This document shows, one piece after another, positions 5,806 through 33,140 of a stretch of 64,000 nucleotides of DNA (within the stretch, counting starts at the first letter, position 1; each line of letters begins with the position of its first letter). The position numbers were made by a program, and so were the translations under genes. Under the pieces are notes generated by a model. That model saw only the letters and a list, made by a program, of their open reading frames with translations. It was not told the origin of the DNA and searched no databases. Source of the DNA: a virus. Taxonomy: Duplodnaviria > Heunggongvirae > Uroviricota > Caudoviricetes. The stretch lies in IMG/VR virus record IMGVR_UViG_2654587728_000014, positions 5,853-69,852 of that record; one strand, 5' to 3'.

Positions 5806-6168
5806 TCATCTCCTTTTTTTCAGTCTGTCGGCAACAATGTCGGTTGCAGCTGGCAGGGTGACTGGCCAGAACAACATGACGGCGGTCATGTACAGGATGT
5901 AATGCGCGGTGTCGTAGTGCCTGCCATAGCCCAGGGAACGATGAAGTCTTGCGCTGCATGATCCTGCGTACATATACCAGAAAAGAAAACAGACAATGGT
6001 TTCAGTAGTCATTCTGAATACCTCCCCATTCGATATGAATATTACGGGCAGCAATGACAGGGTCGTTATTCCACCATGCACCTGACATGTATTTTTCAAC
6101 CTGTTCGCGTCCGGCAATAACACCAATTGTGATCCCCGGCCTGACGTTCTTAAAAAAGGCGCGGGCAA
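5806..6168 (-). CDS. small hypothetical membrane protein (probable start near 6012)
   Basis: Hydrophobic segments CFLFWYMYAG and ILYMTAVMLFWPVTL; abuts the GemA-like stop. Confidence 0.3.
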   Translation of the reverse strand: MPAPFLRTSGRGSQLVLLPDANRLKNTCQVHGGITTLSLLPVIFISNGEVFRMTTETIVCFLFWYMYAGSCSARLHRSLGYGRHYDTAHYILYMTAVMLFWPVTLPAATDIVADRLKKRR

Positions 6169-27385: not shown

Positions 27386-27636
27386 TGAAAGCATACCGCT
27401 ATTCCGGCCCGGCCAGCGGCGTCACGCTGTCGGACGGAACCGAAATCCTGCTCTGGCCGGGGAAGGCGGTTTCCCTGCCGGAGGAGCATGACTACGTGAA
27501 GGTACTGGTGGCGCTGAAGCATCTGACGCCGGTACCAGAAGATACTAAACCCGCCGTCACACCGGCTGTGCAGTCACCAAAGCGCAGAAGCAGCAGTGAC
27601 AGCGAAGTGAAAACGGAGGACGCCCATGGCAGCTAA
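27382..27636 (+). CDS. hypothetical protein
   Basis: 84-aa ORF with overlapping start/stop coupling to neighbours. Confidence 0.4.
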   Translation: MMKAYRYSGPASGVTLSDGTEILLWPGKAVSLPEEHDYVKVLVALKHLTPVPEDTKPAVTPAVQSPKRRSSSDSEVKTEDAHGS

Positions 27637-29053
27637 CTATCTGCATGGTCCCGAAACCATTGAGGTGGAAAACGGAGCCCGCCCGGTTAAAACGGTGAAA
27701 TCTGCCGTTATTGGCCTGATTGGTACCGCCCCGATGGGGGATGTCAATACGCTGGTACAGTGCCTGTCTGAGAAAGACGCAGCGGCATTTGGCAGCCAGT
27801 TCACCGGCTTTACCATTCCGCAGGCGCTGGATGCGATTTATGACCATGGTGCAGGCACCGTTCTGGTCATTAACGTCCTCGACCCGGCGAAACATAAAAC
27901 GGCGATCGAGGATGAGGTGGTTACCTTTGACAAATCGACAGGGCAGGCCAGACTGGCGCATCCGGTTGTCGCTAATGTGGTGGTGAAAAACAGTGAAGGC
28001 AGCACCACCCACACGGCGAACACGGACTACCGTGTTGATGCGCAGGCGGGTGTGCTCACGAACCTGGGCAAGGCTATTGAGGCCGGTGGCAGCGTGAAGG
28101 TGAGCTATGAGTACGCGGACCCGTCGAAGGTGACTGCGGCGGACATCATCGGCGGGGTGAACAGCGCCGGAAACCGAACCGGCATGAAGCTGCTTAACGA
28201 CAGCTTCAACCTGTACGGCTATTTCGCCAAAATTCTGATTGCGCCGGTGTTCTGCACCCAGAAGAGTGTCGCAGTTGAGCTTATCGCCATGGCAGAGAAG
28301 CTGGGCGCGGTAACCTACATTGATGCGCCTGTCGGTACCACCTTTGCACAGGCTCTGGCAGGTCGTGGCCCGGAAGGCACCATCAACTTCAATACCAGCT
28401 CCGACCGCGTCCGTCTGTGCTATCCGCATGTGAAGGTATATGACCCGGTGACAAACACAGAGCGTCTGGAGCCGCTCAGCCAGCGTGCAGCAGGTCTGCG
28501 TGCCAGAGTCGATCTGGACAAGGGCTACTGGTGGTCATCCTCCAATCAGGAGATTCTGGGGATCACCGGCGTGGAGCGCCAGCTGTCCGCGATGATTGAT
28601 GACCCGCAGAGTGAGGTAAACCTGCTTAACGAACAGGGGATCACCACGGTATTCAGCAGTTACGGCAGCGGCCTTCGTCTGTGGGGTAACCGGACGGCAG
28701 CATGGCCAACGGTCACCCATATGCGTAACTTTGAGAACGTTCGCCGCACCGGTGATGTGATCAACGAGTCCATTCGTTATTTCAGCCAGCAGTACATCGA
28801 CATGCCGATTACTCAGGCGCTGATTGATGCACTGACGGAGTCGGTCAACGCCTACGGTCGCAAAATGACTGGTGATGGTGCGGTACTGGGCTTCCGTTGC
28901 TGGTTTGATCCGGCCCGCAATCCGGAGACGGAGCTGGCCGCCGGGCACCTGTTGCTGAGCTACAAATATACGCCACCACCGCCGCTGGAGCGACTGACGT
29001 TTGAGACTGAGATCACCTCGGAATACCTGTTAACCCTGAAAGGGGGCAACTGA
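27626..29053 (+). CDS. tail sheath protein
   Basis: 475 aa directly upstream of the tube gene; typical contractile-tail order. Confidence 0.8.
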   Translation: MAANYLHGPETIEVENGARPVKTVKSAVIGLIGTAPMGDVNTLVQCLSEKDAAAFGSQFTGFTIPQALDAIYDHGAGTVLVINVLDPAKHKTAIEDEVVTFDKSTGQARLAHPVVANVVVKNSEGSTTHTANTDYRVDAQAGVLTNLGKAIEAGGSVKVSYEYADPSKVTAADIIGGVNSAGNRTGMKLLNDSFNLYGYFAKILIAPVFCTQKSVAVELIAMAEKLGAVTYIDAPVGTTFAQALAGRGPEGTINFNTSSDRVRLCYPHVKVYDPVTNTERLEPLSQRAAGLRARVDLDKGYWWSSSNQEILGITGVERQLSAMIDDPQSEVNLLNEQGITTVFSSYGSGLRLWGNRTAAWPTVTHMRNFENVRRTGDVINESIRYFSQQYIDMPITQALIDALTESVNAYGRKMTGDGAVLGFRCWFDPARNPETELAAGHLLLSYKYTPPPPLERLTFETEITSEYLLTLKGGN

Positions 29054-29574
29054 TGTCAAAGATTGAGATAAACCGCATCACGAATGCCAACATCTATCTG
29101 GATGGTACTAACCTGCTGGGACGGGCTGAGGAAGTTAAACTCCCCGATGTCTCCATGATTATGCAGGAACACAAGGCGCTGGGGATGGTGGGTAAGGTGG
29201 AACTCCCGGCTGGTTTTGACAAACTGGAAGGCGAAATCAAATGGAACAGCTTTTACCGCGATGCGATGCTGTCTGCCGCTAACCCGTACAGGTCGCTGGC
29301 ACTGCAGTGTCGTTCCAGCGTCCAGCGCTACAGCTCGCAGGGGCTGATTGACGAAATCCCGCTGGTCACCTTCCTGACGATTATGTTCAAGAAGAACCCT
29401 CTGGGGACGTTCAAACAGCACGAGAACGCCGAGTTCTCCAGTAGCTTCACCTGCACGTATATCAGACAGGTACTGGATGGTGAAGAGCTGCTGCAACTGG
29501 ACTATCTGGCCAACATCTTCCGGGTCGGCGGTGTTGATCAACTGACTGACTACCGTATCAATATCGGGGGCTGA
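29053..29574 (+). CDS. tail tube protein
   Basis: 173 aa following sheath. Confidence 0.7.
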   Translation: MSKIEINRITNANIYLDGTNLLGRAEEVKLPDVSMIMQEHKALGMVGKVELPAGFDKLEGEIKWNSFYRDAMLSAANPYRSLALQCRSSVQRYSSQGLIDEIPLVTFLTIMFKKNPLGTFKQHENAEFSSSFTCTYIRQVLDGEELLQLDYLANIFRVGGVDQLTDYRINIGG

Positions 29575-29652
29575 CGATGAGTGTTGAACTGACGGATAAA
29601 GGAAGACGATGTGCGGCACTGGGCATGTCAAATGGTACGTGGTTAACCCTCC

Positions 29653-29859
29653 TTGATATTCCGGGGGGTGGAAACCCTTTTTAATACCCGTAAAACCAAT
29701 GACCCGATTGACTGCACACGTTCAAAGGCCCGCAAACTGGCGGATTTGATTGAAGCATGGGAGCCTCCCGACCACTGGTTCTCCGGCACCGGCAAATCTG
29801 AGGGAAAGACGCTTCTCATCGCTTTCCTGCGTAACTGCAAGGGGTTTCGCACTTGCTGA
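29653..29859 (+). CDS. hypothetical small protein
   Basis: 68-aa ORF followed by hairpin terminator at 29867-29888. Confidence 0.25.
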   Translation: MIFRGVETLFNTRKTNDPIDCTRSKARKLADLIEAWEPPDHWFSGTGKSEGKTLLIAFLRNCKGFRTC

Positions 29860-29866
29860 CATCACA

Positions 29867-29888
29867 GGGGCTCCGGCCCCTTCTTCTT
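29867..29888 (+). terminator. intrinsic terminator hairpin
   Basis: GGGGCTCCGGCCCC followed by TTCTTCTT. Confidence 0.35.
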
Positions 29889-29956
29889 AATCTCCTTTAA
29901 TATCCGTCACGCGCTTCTCCCGACATACTGCCCTGAACTTACACAGGAGCACAATC

Positions 29957-30229
29957 ATGTCACAGACCCCATCCGATACTTTTAAATTGTCTTATCCCTT
30001 CACCACTGCTGCAGGCACCAGAATTGAGCAGGTTGAACTGAAACGCCTGACGGTAAAAGACCTGAAGCAGGTGCGCAAAATCAGCAAAAACCCGGCAGAC
30101 TGGGACGAACCGCTGATTGCCCGCAGTACTGGTCTTCTCCCGGAAGATCTCGACAATATGGATCTGGCTGATTACCTGCAGTTACAGAAACGATTTCAGC
30201 TCATCACGGGGATGGGTGAGAGCAACTAG
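29957..30229 (+). CDS. tail assembly chaperone (upstream of tape measure)
   Basis: 90 aa acidic protein in the position of P2 E / lambda G. Confidence 0.5.
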   Translation: MSQTPSDTFKLSYPFTTAAGTRIEQVELKRLTVKDLKQVRKISKNPADWDEPLIARSTGLLPEDLDNMDLADYLQLQKRFQLITGMGESN

Positions 30230-30374
30230 GGCGCTGACGCAGGCGCAGGGGCTGCTGGCGAGATGGTTCCGGTTTCAGCCGGGGGAGATTGATGCCCTCG
30301 ATACTGACGATCTGGAGATGTGGCTGGAGCAGGCTGAAGAGCAAATAAAAAGCGAGTACGGCGACAAATCATAG
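30210..30374 (+). CDS. candidate frameshift extension of the tail assembly chaperone (+1 frame)
   Basis: +1 frame relative to 29957-30229 continues as an acidic protein-like sequence (EIDALDTDDLEMWLEQAEEQIKSEYGDKS) past the zero-frame TAG at 30227. Confidence 0.35.
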   Translation, partial: GWVRATRALTQAQGLLARWFRFQPGEIDALDTDDLEMWLEQAEEQIKSEYGDKS

Positions 30375-30449
30375 TACAGACAGCCGCCAGTAGCGGCTGT
30401 TCTGCGTTATCCCCTCACGTCTTCTCACCTTCCCCGGAGGTTAACCACT

Positions 30450-33140
30450 ATGTCGGGACAGTTTTCAGTCGGCGTTGTTATCGGCGGGATGATTGGTAGC
30501 ACATTCCGTTCTGCAATGAGCGGTACCCGCCGTGCGCTTGATTCCCTGAGCGATACCTCACGCCGCCTGCAGGAACGTCAGAACGCTTTAACCCGTGCAA
30601 CAGAACGTTATGGTCAACTGGGTTCTTCCCGGATGCAGCATCTCAACAGCGAGCTGCTGCGGGTAAGCCGCACCATGGAGCAAATTGAGCGCCAGCAGCG
30701 CCGTCTGTCAGCGGCATCCGCTACCAGTGATGCGCTGAAAGCTAACCGCATGGCGCTGTATGGTCAGGGGATTGAAGCGTATGGCATGGCACAGACTGTT
30801 TATCATACGGTTTCCCCTGCCGTTCAGCAGTCCATGTCTTTTCAGGACAAAATGATTGATATGTCGATCACCGCAAAATATGACAATAAAACGCGGGATG
30901 GACTTGCCGGACAGATAAAAGGCTGGGCGCTTAAATACAATCAGTATCAGGATGAGCTGCAGGAGGCGGTGGGTTCACTCATCAGCGACAATATTGATAA
31001 TGTGTCAGATATCGGTTTTCTGATGCCGGATATTGCCCGCGCGGCAACGGCAACACGCACGTCTGCTCAGGACTGGGCAAAAGTGGCCGCAGTCTGGCAA
31101 AACTCCCTGAAAGGTGCGGCCAGAGATTTTGGTGCCGTTCAGAATATTATGGCTTATGCCGGTGACCAGGGGTCATTTGAAATCCCGGATCAGGTCAAGT
31201 GGATGCAGTCCCTGGCCCCAATGATGGCGGGTATTGCCAGTGGAAAAGAGGCTGTTGCTGAAATCGGGGCCAGTCTCCAGATAGCAAAAATCGGTGCAGG
31301 TTCCACCGACGAAGCAGCCAATAATTTTAAAAACTTTCTTACCAAAATTTTTGCCCGCGATACTCAGAAACAGTTTGCTGATCTGGGTATTGATTTGCAG
31401 GGATCTATTGCGAGTTATAAAGCTGCGGGGATCTCTCCGATTGAAGGGATGTTGAGTGTTATAGAACGTTACCTCAATGCCAAAAGCCCCGAAGCGCTGG
31501 CCGGCTTCAAATCAGCCATGAAAATAAAGAATGATACGGCAAGAGATGAGGCACTTCAGGCTCTGGCGAAAAACTTTGGTCTGGGCGATATGTTCGCGGA
31601 TATGCAGGTCATGGCATTTATCCGCCCGATGCTGGCCAACATGGACAGATATCGAGAGATCCGTGCCGGTGCTCTCAGGGCTGCGGATAACGATTTGCTT
31701 GCCAGTGCTTATGATCAGCGGCTGAAATCTCCCCTTGAAGCCACTAAAACACTTATGGTCAGCAGTCGCGATCTGGCAATTACGCTGGGCGATCAATTAG
31801 CTCCATCTTTTATTTCTTTGACTCAGGAACTGCTTCCACTCATTCAGGGGGCAAAACACTGGGTAGCGACTCACCCGCAATTTGTCAGTGGGGCTTTTAA
31901 GCTCATCAGTGCGCTCCTTGCGATTAAGATAGCGACTGTTGGTCTCAAACTGGGGCTGAATCTCCTTATTTCCCCCTTTGTAAGTGTCTGGAAAAATGCT
32001 GTTTTACTTCGGGCCAACTGGCTTCGTCTGTCGCTCGCACTGGGGCAAGGCGGTAAGCTCCGCTGGCTGGTGACCGGATTTAGCGCCGTCGCCAGAGGAG
32101 CCAGAACACTGAGTGGCGTGCTCTCCGGGGGGCTGGTTCGCGGAATTATGCTCGCCGGACGTGCTGTTCTCTGGATTGGACGTGCGCTGATGATGAATCC
32201 CATCGGTCTCGTTATCACCGCTGTCGCGGCAGCAGCTTACCTTATCTACCGCAACTGGGGGGCAGTCAGTGGCTGGTTTAAACAGCGCTGGGCAGACATT
32301 CAGGAAGCCTTTAACGGCGGCATTGTGGGAATTGGTAAGTTACTGATTAACTGGTCGCCGGCAGGCCTGCTCTATAAAGCCTTTGCAGCTGCGCTGAAAT
32401 ATCTTGGTGTTGATCTGCCGGCAAAGTTTACCGACTTCGGTGGCCATCTTGTCGATGGTCTGATTAACGGTATCAAAAACAAATGGGAGTCGCTCAAATC
32501 CAGTGTAACCGGAATGGGTGACAGCATCAGTGGCTGGTTCAGCGAAAAGCTGGGCATTCATTCGCCGAGCCGCGTGTTTATGGGCTTTGGTGACAATATC
32601 GCGCAGGGGGCCGCCATTGGCCTGCAGCGGACCACTCCGCTTGCAGCTCTGGCCGGGCAGCGAATGGCCAGTGAACTGCTCCCCAGAATGCCCGTGAGCA
32701 TCCAGGGGCCAGAAATACGGGATAACACTTCAGGTGTTCGCTTCAGTATGCCGTTGCCCGATATCAATGGGTTTATGTCGTCTGCTAAAAATGCGATCGG
32801 AGCCGTAATCAATAGTTTGTCTTCCATGCCCGCTATTCCGCTCTCCACCCGGGCATCGATTTTACCAGGGCAACGTCTGGCAAATGAGATGACACCGGAT
32901 GTTCCCCGTATCCCCTCGCCTGAAATCCTGGCTGCCGGATATTCAGGCCGTGGTGCAGCTGCAACCGGCGGTGGAACGTCTGGTGGTATCCAGGTCAGCT
33001 TTAATCCTCAGTTTTTCCTCAATGGCAGGGAAACCACAGCGCCTGCAGGACTGACTGGTGCCCTGAATATGAGTCTGCATGAGCTGGAAAAAATGCTGGA
33101 GCGTCTGCTGGCTCAGAAACAACGTAAGGAGTACCGCTGA
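30450..33140 (+). CDS. tail tape-measure protein
   Basis: 896 aa, helical N-terminal half and Gly/Ala-rich hydrophobic central segments. Confidence 0.85.
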   Translation: MSGQFSVGVVIGGMIGSTFRSAMSGTRRALDSLSDTSRRLQERQNALTRATERYGQLGSSRMQHLNSELLRVSRTMEQIERQQRRLSAASATSDALKANRMALYGQGIEAYGMAQTVYHTVSPAVQQSMSFQDKMIDMSITAKYDNKTRDGLAGQIKGWALKYNQYQDELQEAVGSLISDNIDNVSDIGFLMPDIARAATATRTSAQDWAKVAAVWQNSLKGAARDFGAVQNIMAYAGDQGSFEIPDQVKWMQSLAPMMAGIASGKEAVAEIGASLQIAKIGAGSTDEAANNFKNFLTKIFARDTQKQFADLGIDLQGSIASYKAAGISPIEGMLSVIERYLNAKSPEALAGFKSAMKIKNDTARDEALQALAKNFGLGDMFADMQVMAFIRPMLANMDRYREIRAGALRAADNDLLASAYDQRLKSPLEATKTLMVSSRDLAITLGDQLAPSFISLTQELLPLIQGAKHWVATHPQFVSGAFKLISALLAIKIATVGLKLGLNLLISPFVSVWKNAVLLRANWLRLSLALGQGGKLRWLVTGFSAVARGARTLSGVLSGGLVRGIMLAGRAVLWIGRALMMNPIGLVITAVAAAAYLIYRNWGAVSGWFKQRWADIQEAFNGGIVGIGKLLINWSPAGLLYKAFAAALKYLGVDLPAKFTDFGGHLVDGLINGIKNKWESLKSSVTGMGDSISGWFSEKLGIHSPSRVFMGFGDNIAQGAAIGLQRTTPLAALAGQRMASELLPRMPVSIQGPEIRDNTSGVRFSMPLPDINGFMSSAKNAIGAVINSLSSMPAIPLSTRASILPGQRLANEMTPDVPRIPSPEILAAGYSGRGAAATGGGTSGGIQVSFNPQFFLNGRETTAPAGLTGALNMSLHELEKMLERLLAQKQRKEYR

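Follow-up and report, generated by a model that had tools for sequence, protein, structure and literature searches.

The production of two tail assembly chaperones from one start codon, the longer of them extended by a ribosomal frameshift, has been a known principle in phages since lambda G/GT. The gene considered here lies in a tailed-phage record of IMG/VR (IMGVR_UViG_2654587728_000014, Caudoviricetes), of which a stretch of 64,000 nucleotides (nt; positions 5,853 to 69,852) was analyzed and is called the window below; all coordinates are those of the window and refer to its plus strand. We think it probable that this gene, an unannotated example of the known frameshifted tail chaperone and not a new principle, makes two proteins from one start by a conserved +1 slip at CGA_UUU_C, a reading that rests on comparative sequence analysis.

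Tail chaperone genes use -1, -2 or +1 shifts, and a +1 shift was reported for a haloarchaeal myovirus (PMC5009743). Among the 2,718 training cases of the PRFect paper, which are annotated frameshifts in SEA-PHAGES genomes, 350 are forward shifts. The first-pass annotation of this DNA, which was made from the letters alone, called a +1 shift unusual for such a gene, which is fair but overstated. The functional model is provided by gpG and gpGT of lambda, two products with a common N-terminal part; one is the partner of the tape measure protein, the extension that of the major tail protein, and neither is found in the virion (PMC5009743). Lambda differs in being a siphovirus that shifts by -1 at G_GGA_AAG with a ratio of about 30:1, and it is likened to the present case by this model, not by sequence.

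The closest described pair is gpE/gpE+E' of the P2 FETUD tail operon, which is likewise encoded between a tube gene (FII) and a tape measure gene (T), has an N-terminal PF10109 domain and carries an extension homologous to that of the window. The P2 products of 91 and 142 amino acids (aa; PMC3091744) compare with predicted products of 90 (or 111) and 138 aa here, and the slippery Phe codon follows the MDLxD motif by 11 residues in P2 and by 8 in the window, that is, within 3 residues of each other at the C-terminal edge of the chaperone domain. In contrast to the proven -1 shift of P2 at GGT TTT TTG (heptamer T_TTT_TTG), six codons before the P2 stop, the extension of the window is in the +1 frame and no heptamer is present; the proposed site lies 32 codons (ancestral form) or 10-11 codons (the TAG allele described below) before the zero-frame stop, and the window family has a long dual-coded overlap. 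Mu gp41 shares the Pfam family, the gene position and the frame of the extension, as +1 and -2 are equivalent in this respect. However, Mu uses a verified -2 shift on the G5 run CGG_GGG_CGA with the rare CGA in the A site, whereas in the window family UUU_C is conserved, re-pairing after a -2 move (GAU) is impossible and CGA stands 5' of the slippery codon. The Mu extension gave no match in our tblastn comparison and has no detectable similarity to that of the window.

With respect to the slippery sequence itself, UUU_Ynn is +1 shift-prone in bacteria and is the likely site of Yersinia YopN-TyeA, and influenza A PA-X uses UCC_UUU_CGU (PMC5009743). The E. coli UUU_Ynn sites, YopN-TyeA and PA-X would share with the window the slippery tetranucleotide and the move of tRNA-Phe from UUU to UUC. 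Relatives of the BcepMu type carry UCC_UUU_CGC, which comes close to the PA-X cassette, or UCU_UUU_CGU. While PA-X has a slow CGU in the A site, the enterobacterial and Ralstonia types have a rare CGA before UUU and an ordinary A-site codon (CAG, CAA or CUG). The features of the RF2 type, namely a conserved A-site stop codon, CUU_U re-pairing and a Shine-Dalgarno (SD)-like stimulator on the 5' side, are all lacking at the chaperone stop.

A chaperone gene with a conserved extension in the +1 frame

The zero-frame open reading frame (ORF) of the chaperone comprises 90 codons (29957..30229) and is preceded by a Shine-Dalgarno sequence, AGGAG (29945..29949), which was read from the sequence 7 nt 5' of the ATG. 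Its product matched PF10109 (Phage_TAC_7) over residues 8-82 with an E value of 1.9e-22 and 79.5 bits (cut-off 25), a family described in Pfam as 'tail assembly chaperone proteins E, or 41 or 14', and the tail protein family phrog_166 with 5.5e-30. Direct reading of the sequence bore out that the ORF ends in GAG AGC AAC TAG with the TAG at 30227-30229, and also that the +1 frame continues beyond this stop for 48 sense codons, which include EIDALDTDDLEMWLEQAEEQIKSEYGDKS. This frame (window coordinate modulo 3 equal to 0) has no stop codon from 30117 through 30371 and ends in a TAG at 30372-30374; the -1 frame is shut by a TGA at 30215-30217. The tape measure gene starts with the ATG at 30450, 75 nt after the extension stop, the earlier figure of 76 having counted one end.

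Codons 1-80 joined to the +1 frame give a predicted fusion of 138 aa and 15.9 kDa. Its +1 continuation of 58 codons plus TAG, SSSRGWVRATRALTQAQG-LLARWFRFQPGEIDALDTDDLEMWLEQAEEQIKSEYGDKS (30198..30374), matched phrog_8286 (1.3e-32). The C-terminal part, which begins with LLARWFRFQPGEID (30252..30371), is named 'GpE family phage tail protein' by PGAP, and residues 100-132 of the fusion aligned to positions 4-36 of the 37 positions of PF06528 (Phage_P2_GpE) with 18.3 bits, below the cut-off of 23 bits. When an alignment of 15 predicted fusions was compared with P2 gpE+E', a full-length match was obtained by hhalign (E 2.1e-5, probability 77%). A search against NCBIfam and a search of the fusion profile against the PDB (E <= 1) gave no match. 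We take the extension to be a P2 E'-like domain.

From phage records, GTDB genomes and IMG/VR, 153 related loci (E. coli, Klebsiella, Salmonella, Brenneria, Ralstonia and Pseudomonas) were gathered, and chaperone and extension were placed by tblastn. Of these, 149 have the extension in the +1 frame. The +1 arrangement is also shown by Burkholderia BcepMu and by additional contigs, eight of the BcepMu type and seven of the Pseudomonas type. This answers the check on relatives that had been suggested for the +1 arrangement, and a homologous extension in the same frame at so many loci speaks against the assembly indel that had been named as a possible refutation. Because the +1 frame is kept in these 149 loci and the substitutions in the extension are mostly synonymous in +1, the two-frame arrangement is neither a chance ORF nor an assembly indel.

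Two of the remaining loci have the extension in the -1 frame. Both are distant relatives with canonical heptamers, A_AAG_GGA in Pasteurella phage AFS-2018a (locus L012, about 1730-1745) and T_TTT_TTG, the site of P2, in L141. Shifts by -1, by -2 (Mu) and by +1 are therefore all represented within PF10109. In the other two loci, L029 (Apirhabdus apintestini, CP138906) and L103 (IMG/VR 2734481909), a one-base deletion brings both parts into one frame. Together with the 138-aa database proteins P0001-P0011, these natural fusions were tried as a guide to the junction and rejected, as their junctions are scattered over homopolymer runs. The fused ORFs result from single-base deletions, most often from G5 to G4 at 30281-30285, and none of the complete E. 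coli genomes has the G4 form of this run. Given the scattered junctions and this absence, the fusions are probably sequencing errors or sporadic mutations, most of them probably read or assembly errors in Logan assemblies. Two of the loci (L015/L030) stem from an 8241-bp contig recorded as 'Arthrobacter sp. GMC3' (NZ_PJIO01000028.1) whose chaperone is 100% identical to that of the E. coli prophage, and this actinobacterial assignment probably reflects assembly contamination.

The extension could also be made without any frameshift, as a small 'GpE family' protein translated on its own from an internal start. PGAP annotates it in this way in several genomes, as a separate coding sequence (CDS) of 46-52 aa starting with CTG 30234 or, in other strains, GTG 30216; the BcepMu record gives the +1 ORF as a separate gene, gp42, and an ATG, GTG or TTG occurs somewhere in the linker between the chaperone and the extension domain of many sequences. 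Neither a start codon nor an SD sequence of its own is conserved among the relatives, however, so that the second refutation considered earlier, an independent start with a ribosome-binding site, was not borne out. The candidate starts vary in position and type, SD-like matches are mostly absent, and seven unique sequences have no ATG, GTG or TTG at all between TTT and LLARW, and for these reasons independent initiation fails. Constraint in the +1 frame, including an invariant Trp codon, extends 5' of every annotated start, and the homologous E' of P2 is known only as part of a fusion (GenBank record; PMC3091744). We regard separate translation of the extension as very improbable.

The change of coding frame and the proposed shift site

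The position at which selection changes frame was followed by parsimony counts of changes on 105 unique sequences. Up to codon 78, zero-frame position 3 is the most variable codon position; from codon 82 onwards this role passes to zero-frame position 1, where the +1 reading has its wobble. The pattern flips at codons 79-81. The same switch is seen in substitutions that are synonymous in one frame only, counted here as zero frame versus +1 frame. Upstream of the site they amount to 181 versus 31 in the E. coli type, 116 versus 7 in the Salmonella type and 96 versus 21 in the Ralstonia type; in the linker, from the site to LLARW, the counts are 38 versus 75, 14 versus 48 and 18 versus 27, respectively, and the difference between the whole linker and the upstream part is significant in each type (Fisher p = 5e-21, 4e-24 and 6e-7). 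The second half of the linker is clearly governed by the +1 frame (13 versus 51, 9 versus 38 and 6 versus 21), and within the extension of the E. coli type 126 substitutions are synonymous only in +1 compared with 42 only in the zero frame. In codons 99-111, 100 of 128 changes are synonymous in +1 and 11 in the zero frame. The changes in the extension that are synonymous in +1 are nonsynonymous or stop-creating in the zero frame. One example is the Arg of WFRF, which is encoded by CGG, AGA, AGG or CGC depending on the lineage, AGA giving a zero-frame TAG in Klebsiella-type sequences.

A +1-frame Trp codon, W86 of the fusion (30213..30215), is invariant in the fusion alignment and follows the Phe codon by 1-6 codons in all 105 sequences; in all E. 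coli-type and Salmonella-type sequences it lies four codons 5' of the TAG position. The zero-frame codon that overlaps it is always NTG (CTG, ATG, GTG or TTG), although Leu and Val have other synonymous codons.

The proposed site, CGA_TTT_C (30191..30197), consists of codons 79-80 plus the following C. Over the 105 sequences, the three positions of TTT have 0, 0 and 0 parsimony changes and those of CGA 1, 1 and 2. If the permitted interval is defined as running from the last +1-frame stop to the zero-frame stop, the site contains the sole TTT_Y within this interval in every sequence, as CGA_TTT_C in 103, CGG_TTT_C in one and GTG_TTT_CGG (GTGTTTCGG) in one, and sequences of the BcepMu type carry TCC, GCC or TCT before TTT and CGC or CGT after it. 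The interval is narrow in places, with the nearest +1-frame stop down to four codons before TTT (15 unique sequences) and the nearest zero-frame stop following it at a distance of 9 codons in L119 and L120, two diverged sequences of the Salmonella type, of 11 in the window and of 17 in L109. Codon usage of the flanking genes makes TTT an uncommon choice in the GC-rich loci, where its share of the Phe codons is 3% (Pseudomonas), 13% (BcepMu) and 26% (Ralstonia type), and CGA accounts for 5-12% of the Arg codons across all groups. The features of a +1-prone UUU_Y site are present, namely an in-frame UUU followed by a pyrimidine and a +1 frame open to 30371. Re-pairing of tRNA-Phe from UUU to UUC is perfect, whereas a -2 move would land on GAU.

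We infer from this that slippage occurs at CGA_UUU_C. Most ribosomes would remain in the zero frame and make a short chaperone, of 90 aa in the TAG allele and of 111 aa in most relatives. In a minority, the P-site tRNA-Phe on UUU (30194-30196) would re-pair with the overlapping UUC (30195-30197), and these ribosomes would go on in the +1 frame to the TAG at 30372-30374. The resulting 138-aa fusion would consist of the chaperone domain, a linker of 19 residues and the P2 E'-like domain (LLARWFRFQPGEIDALDTDDLEMWLEQAEEQIK...). On the model of lambda G/GT and P2 E/E+E', the N-terminal part common to both products may bind the tape measure protein, the presumed client of the chaperone, the extension may recruit the tail tube protein, and neither product would end in the virion.

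Several observations weigh against this interpretation. The first 8-9 codons of the linker are mixed in their frame signal (25 versus 24 in the E. coli type, 5 versus 10 in the Salmonella type and 12 versus 6 in the Ralstonia type), and the site is thus not fixed to the nucleotide by it. This first half differs from the upstream part in two of the three clades, the Ralstonia type showing no difference (p = 0.2). Such a mixture is expected under dual coding, because both products are read there. Furthermore, an SD-like sequence 5' of CGA_TTT_C is absent, the predicted fold of 30185-30300 is no better than that of shuffled sequences (z = -0.46), and the codon that enters the A site after UUU in the enterobacterial type (CAG or CAA) is not rare. 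A shift one to three codons upstream, after which GAT TTC would be read, could account for part of the conservation of CGA_TTT, the window copy may reside in a decaying prophage, with a 1-nt insertion in a neighbouring gene, and both products are predicted from sequence in this family. An Rfam search of 29800-30500 gave no match. Since neither an SD-like sequence nor a significant 3' structure was found, any stimulator must be local, and the conserved rare CGA is the obvious candidate for it.

A shift that is real but takes place elsewhere in the overlap would leave the two-frame arrangement untouched. It might occur by +1 at the G4 run in GCA GGG GCT (30245-30253), or by -2 or +1, as in Mu, at the G5 run in GCC GGG GGA (30278-30286). 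The ambiguous first half of the linker leaves room for this, and the verified -2 site of Mu, CGG GGG CGA, is a G5 run shortly 5' of a stop. The run of the window (30281..30285, in GCC GGG GGA GAT TGA) resembles it and lies two codons before the ancestral TGA, and Ralstonia-type phages have GGC GGG GGA directly before LLARW. However, no G run is kept across the clades: the Salmonella type reads GGC AAT GGC GCT and the variant L006 GGGC. The G5 run is located 3' of LLARWFRFQ in the stretch with 100 against 11 of 128 changes in favour of +1, the invariant +1-frame Trp stands 5' of all the G-run candidates named here, and a zero-frame stop precedes the G5 run in the KP12-type sequences, in L119/L120 (9 codons after TTT) and in the window. 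Both the G5 run and the G4 run were therefore rejected as shift sites, being unconserved (G5 absent from the Salmonella and Ralstonia types), preceded by zero-frame stops (GTT TAG in the Klebsiella KP12 type) and lying beyond the point at which +1 selection begins. This leaves a shift at another position in the overlap improbable, and slippage at CGA_UUU_C the preferred reading.

If slippage at CGA_UUU_C is accepted, a further step may be considered for the family of P2 E, Mu gp41 and BcepMu gp41, which we put forward tentatively and hold to be rather doubtful. The direction of the shift may have switched while its place, a UUU Phe codon where the chaperone domain ends, was kept, as -1 on U_UUU_UUG in the P2 type and as +1 on UUU_C in the BcepMu type, with the near-invariant CGA 5' of UUU acting as stimulator in the enterobacterial and Ralstonia branches. 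CGA, which is decoded via inosine-adenosine wobble, would be in the E site during the slip. Were this true, an E-site CGA would represent a kind of +1 stimulator undescribed so far for bacterial programmed frameshifts.

The segment 30238-30345 is near-identical between E. coli-type and Klebsiella-type prophages, while the flanking chaperone sequence differs by about 12-18%, and codons 99-111 show 3.3 changes per nt compared with 6-7 elsewhere. The low rate of change at 30238-30345 could result from double coding constraint or from a recombination block.

The TAG allele and the state of the window copy

The TAG at 30227..30229 that ends the chaperone ORF of the window is an allele of CAG. Of the 5426 complete E. 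coli genomes searched with 41-mers that have the polymorphic base in the middle, 6 carry the TAG form (EcPF7, MLI121, MLI114, TUM1857, JMK_KBN3987 and FCI23) and 560 the CAG form, and the codon is CAG (Gln) in PhiKM, EC958 and most other copies. With CAG, the zero frame runs 20 codons further to the TGA at 30290-30292, giving a protein of 111 aa; in the TAG allele this former tail, GADAGAGAAGEMVPVSAGGD followed by the TGA (30230..30292), is not translated in the zero frame. The mutation shortens only the zero-frame tail, which is poorly conserved; in the +1 frame it turns ACC into ACT, a synonymous change that keeps Thr. On this distribution, we take TAG to be a derived, rare and recent C-to-T mutation that leaves the fusion unchanged. 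The Phage_TAC_7 domain (residues 8-82) is complete in the 90-aa product, which matches P2 gpE in size. Among the relatives, the zero-frame stop is found 9, 11, 17, 25, 27, 30 or 32 codons after TTT.

The first-pass annotation had placed the +1 shift at this stop codon. The linkage of chaperone and extension through the +1 frame has stood, and is conserved; the location has not. An RF2-like +1 shift at AAC_TAG_G (30224-30230) might be considered because a stop codon and an open +1 frame are indeed present in the window and stop codons are classic +1 pause sites (PMC5009743). But CAG takes the place of the stop in almost all other relatives and in 560 of the 566 complete E. coli genomes in which one or the other 41-mer was found, and a TAG that is both rare and synonymous in +1 means that a stop-dependent frameshift cannot be the conserved mechanism. 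AAC_TAG offers no re-pairing, since a +1 move would bring tRNA-Asn onto ACU, an SD-like stimulator is lacking on its 5' side, and selection in the +1 frame begins ten codons 5' of the TAG. A shift at the stop codon is thus hardly credible, in contrast to slippage at CGA_UUU_C.

A different question is whether the window copy is still functional. The TAG and a 1-nt insertion nearby may be lesions in a defective prophage from which nothing functional is made, a view that is compatible with slippage at CGA_UUU_C in the family as a whole. It is suggested by the PGAP entries for the near-identical copy in EcPF7, which mark the TAG-bearing chaperone gene as a pseudogene ('internal stop') and the gene 5' of it as 'frameshifted', by the G6 in place of the relatives' G5 at 29663-29668, which splits the phrog_1239 gene, and by the rarity of the TAG allele. 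The neutrality of the TAG in the +1 frame and the complete chaperone domain at the size of P2 gpE argue in the opposite direction. Earlier zero-frame stops occur elsewhere (L119/L120) with the +1 frame intact and still diverging, and one viral contig (L047) combines the TAG with an intact upstream gene. We consider decay of the window copy possible, but lean towards a functional gene.

Gene order, annotation and neighbouring elements

The genes around the chaperone form the tail module of a prophage of the Mu-head/P2-tail (BcepMu-like) kind. Among phage records, that of Escherichia phage PhiKM is the closest (99% identity, Bcepmuvirus), and near-identical DNA is present in 637 of the 5426 complete E. 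coli genomes (about 12%). A tail sheath gene (27626..29053; Pfam Phage_sheath_1, 2.2e-29, and Phage_sheath_1C, 4.1e-19) and a tail tube gene of the P2 FII type (29053..29574; Phage_tube, 2.9e-53) are followed by a small gene of the family phrog_1239, of unknown function (29577-29859), by the chaperone gene and by the gene of an 896-aa tape measure protein (30450..33140; PhageMin_Tail, 1.7e-20; 'phage tail tape measure protein' according to PGAP). Homologues of P2 U, X and D lie 3' of the latter. The order of sheath, tube, one small ORF, chaperone and tape measure is the position expected of a frameshifted tail chaperone pair.

In the records examined, the pair appears as two separate entries, a 'tail assembly protein' and, with a start chosen arbitrarily, an orphan 'GpE family' ORF. 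A joined CDS is given in none of the 16 phage records that match the BcepMu fusion, although an earlier mention of the +1 arrangement in the literature is possible. In the BcepMu record (L155, AY539836, 4603-5364), the +1 ORF is labelled 'gp42, probable lambda G', and a further slip into 'gp43' is invoked. The record assigns the lambda G and T roles to the wrong ORFs; by homology, gp41 is the chaperone and gp42 its +1 extension, probably reached via TCC_TTT_CGC. A joined annotation would mend the split pair, the pseudogene flag of the TAG allele and the role assignment in BcepMu. Beside the share of complete E. coli genomes given above, this concerns relatives in Klebsiella, Salmonella, Ralstonia, Pseudomonas and Burkholderia. 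No new field is opened by this family, but it adds a well-conserved putative bacterial UUU_C +1 site alongside homologues with -1 and -2 shifts and may serve as a natural system to study what sets the direction and the efficiency of the shift.

Some features of the neighbourhood deserve mention in their own right. The phrog_1239 gene is broken into two ORFs of 35 and 68 aa, both of which match phrog_1239. The split is caused by one extra G at 29663-29668, where the window and EcPF7 have G6, while PhiKM, EC958 and 30 other loci have G5 at this position; PGAP labels the gene 'frameshifted' in EcPF7. In the gap that separates the extension stop from the tape measure gene, the hairpin ACAGCCGC-CAGTA-GCGGCTGT (30380..30400) keeps its stem among the relatives with a variable loop, and the surrounding segment 30370-30452 has a predicted fold of -26.9 kcal/mol (z = -4.56). 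It received no terminator call, and a T tract 3' of the stem is missing; this hairpin might be an mRNA stability or processing element. Another, terminator-like hairpin, AGGGGCTCCGGCCCCT followed by TCTTCTT, is found at 29866-29881 between the phrog_1239 and chaperone genes, and thus within what should be a single late tail operon.

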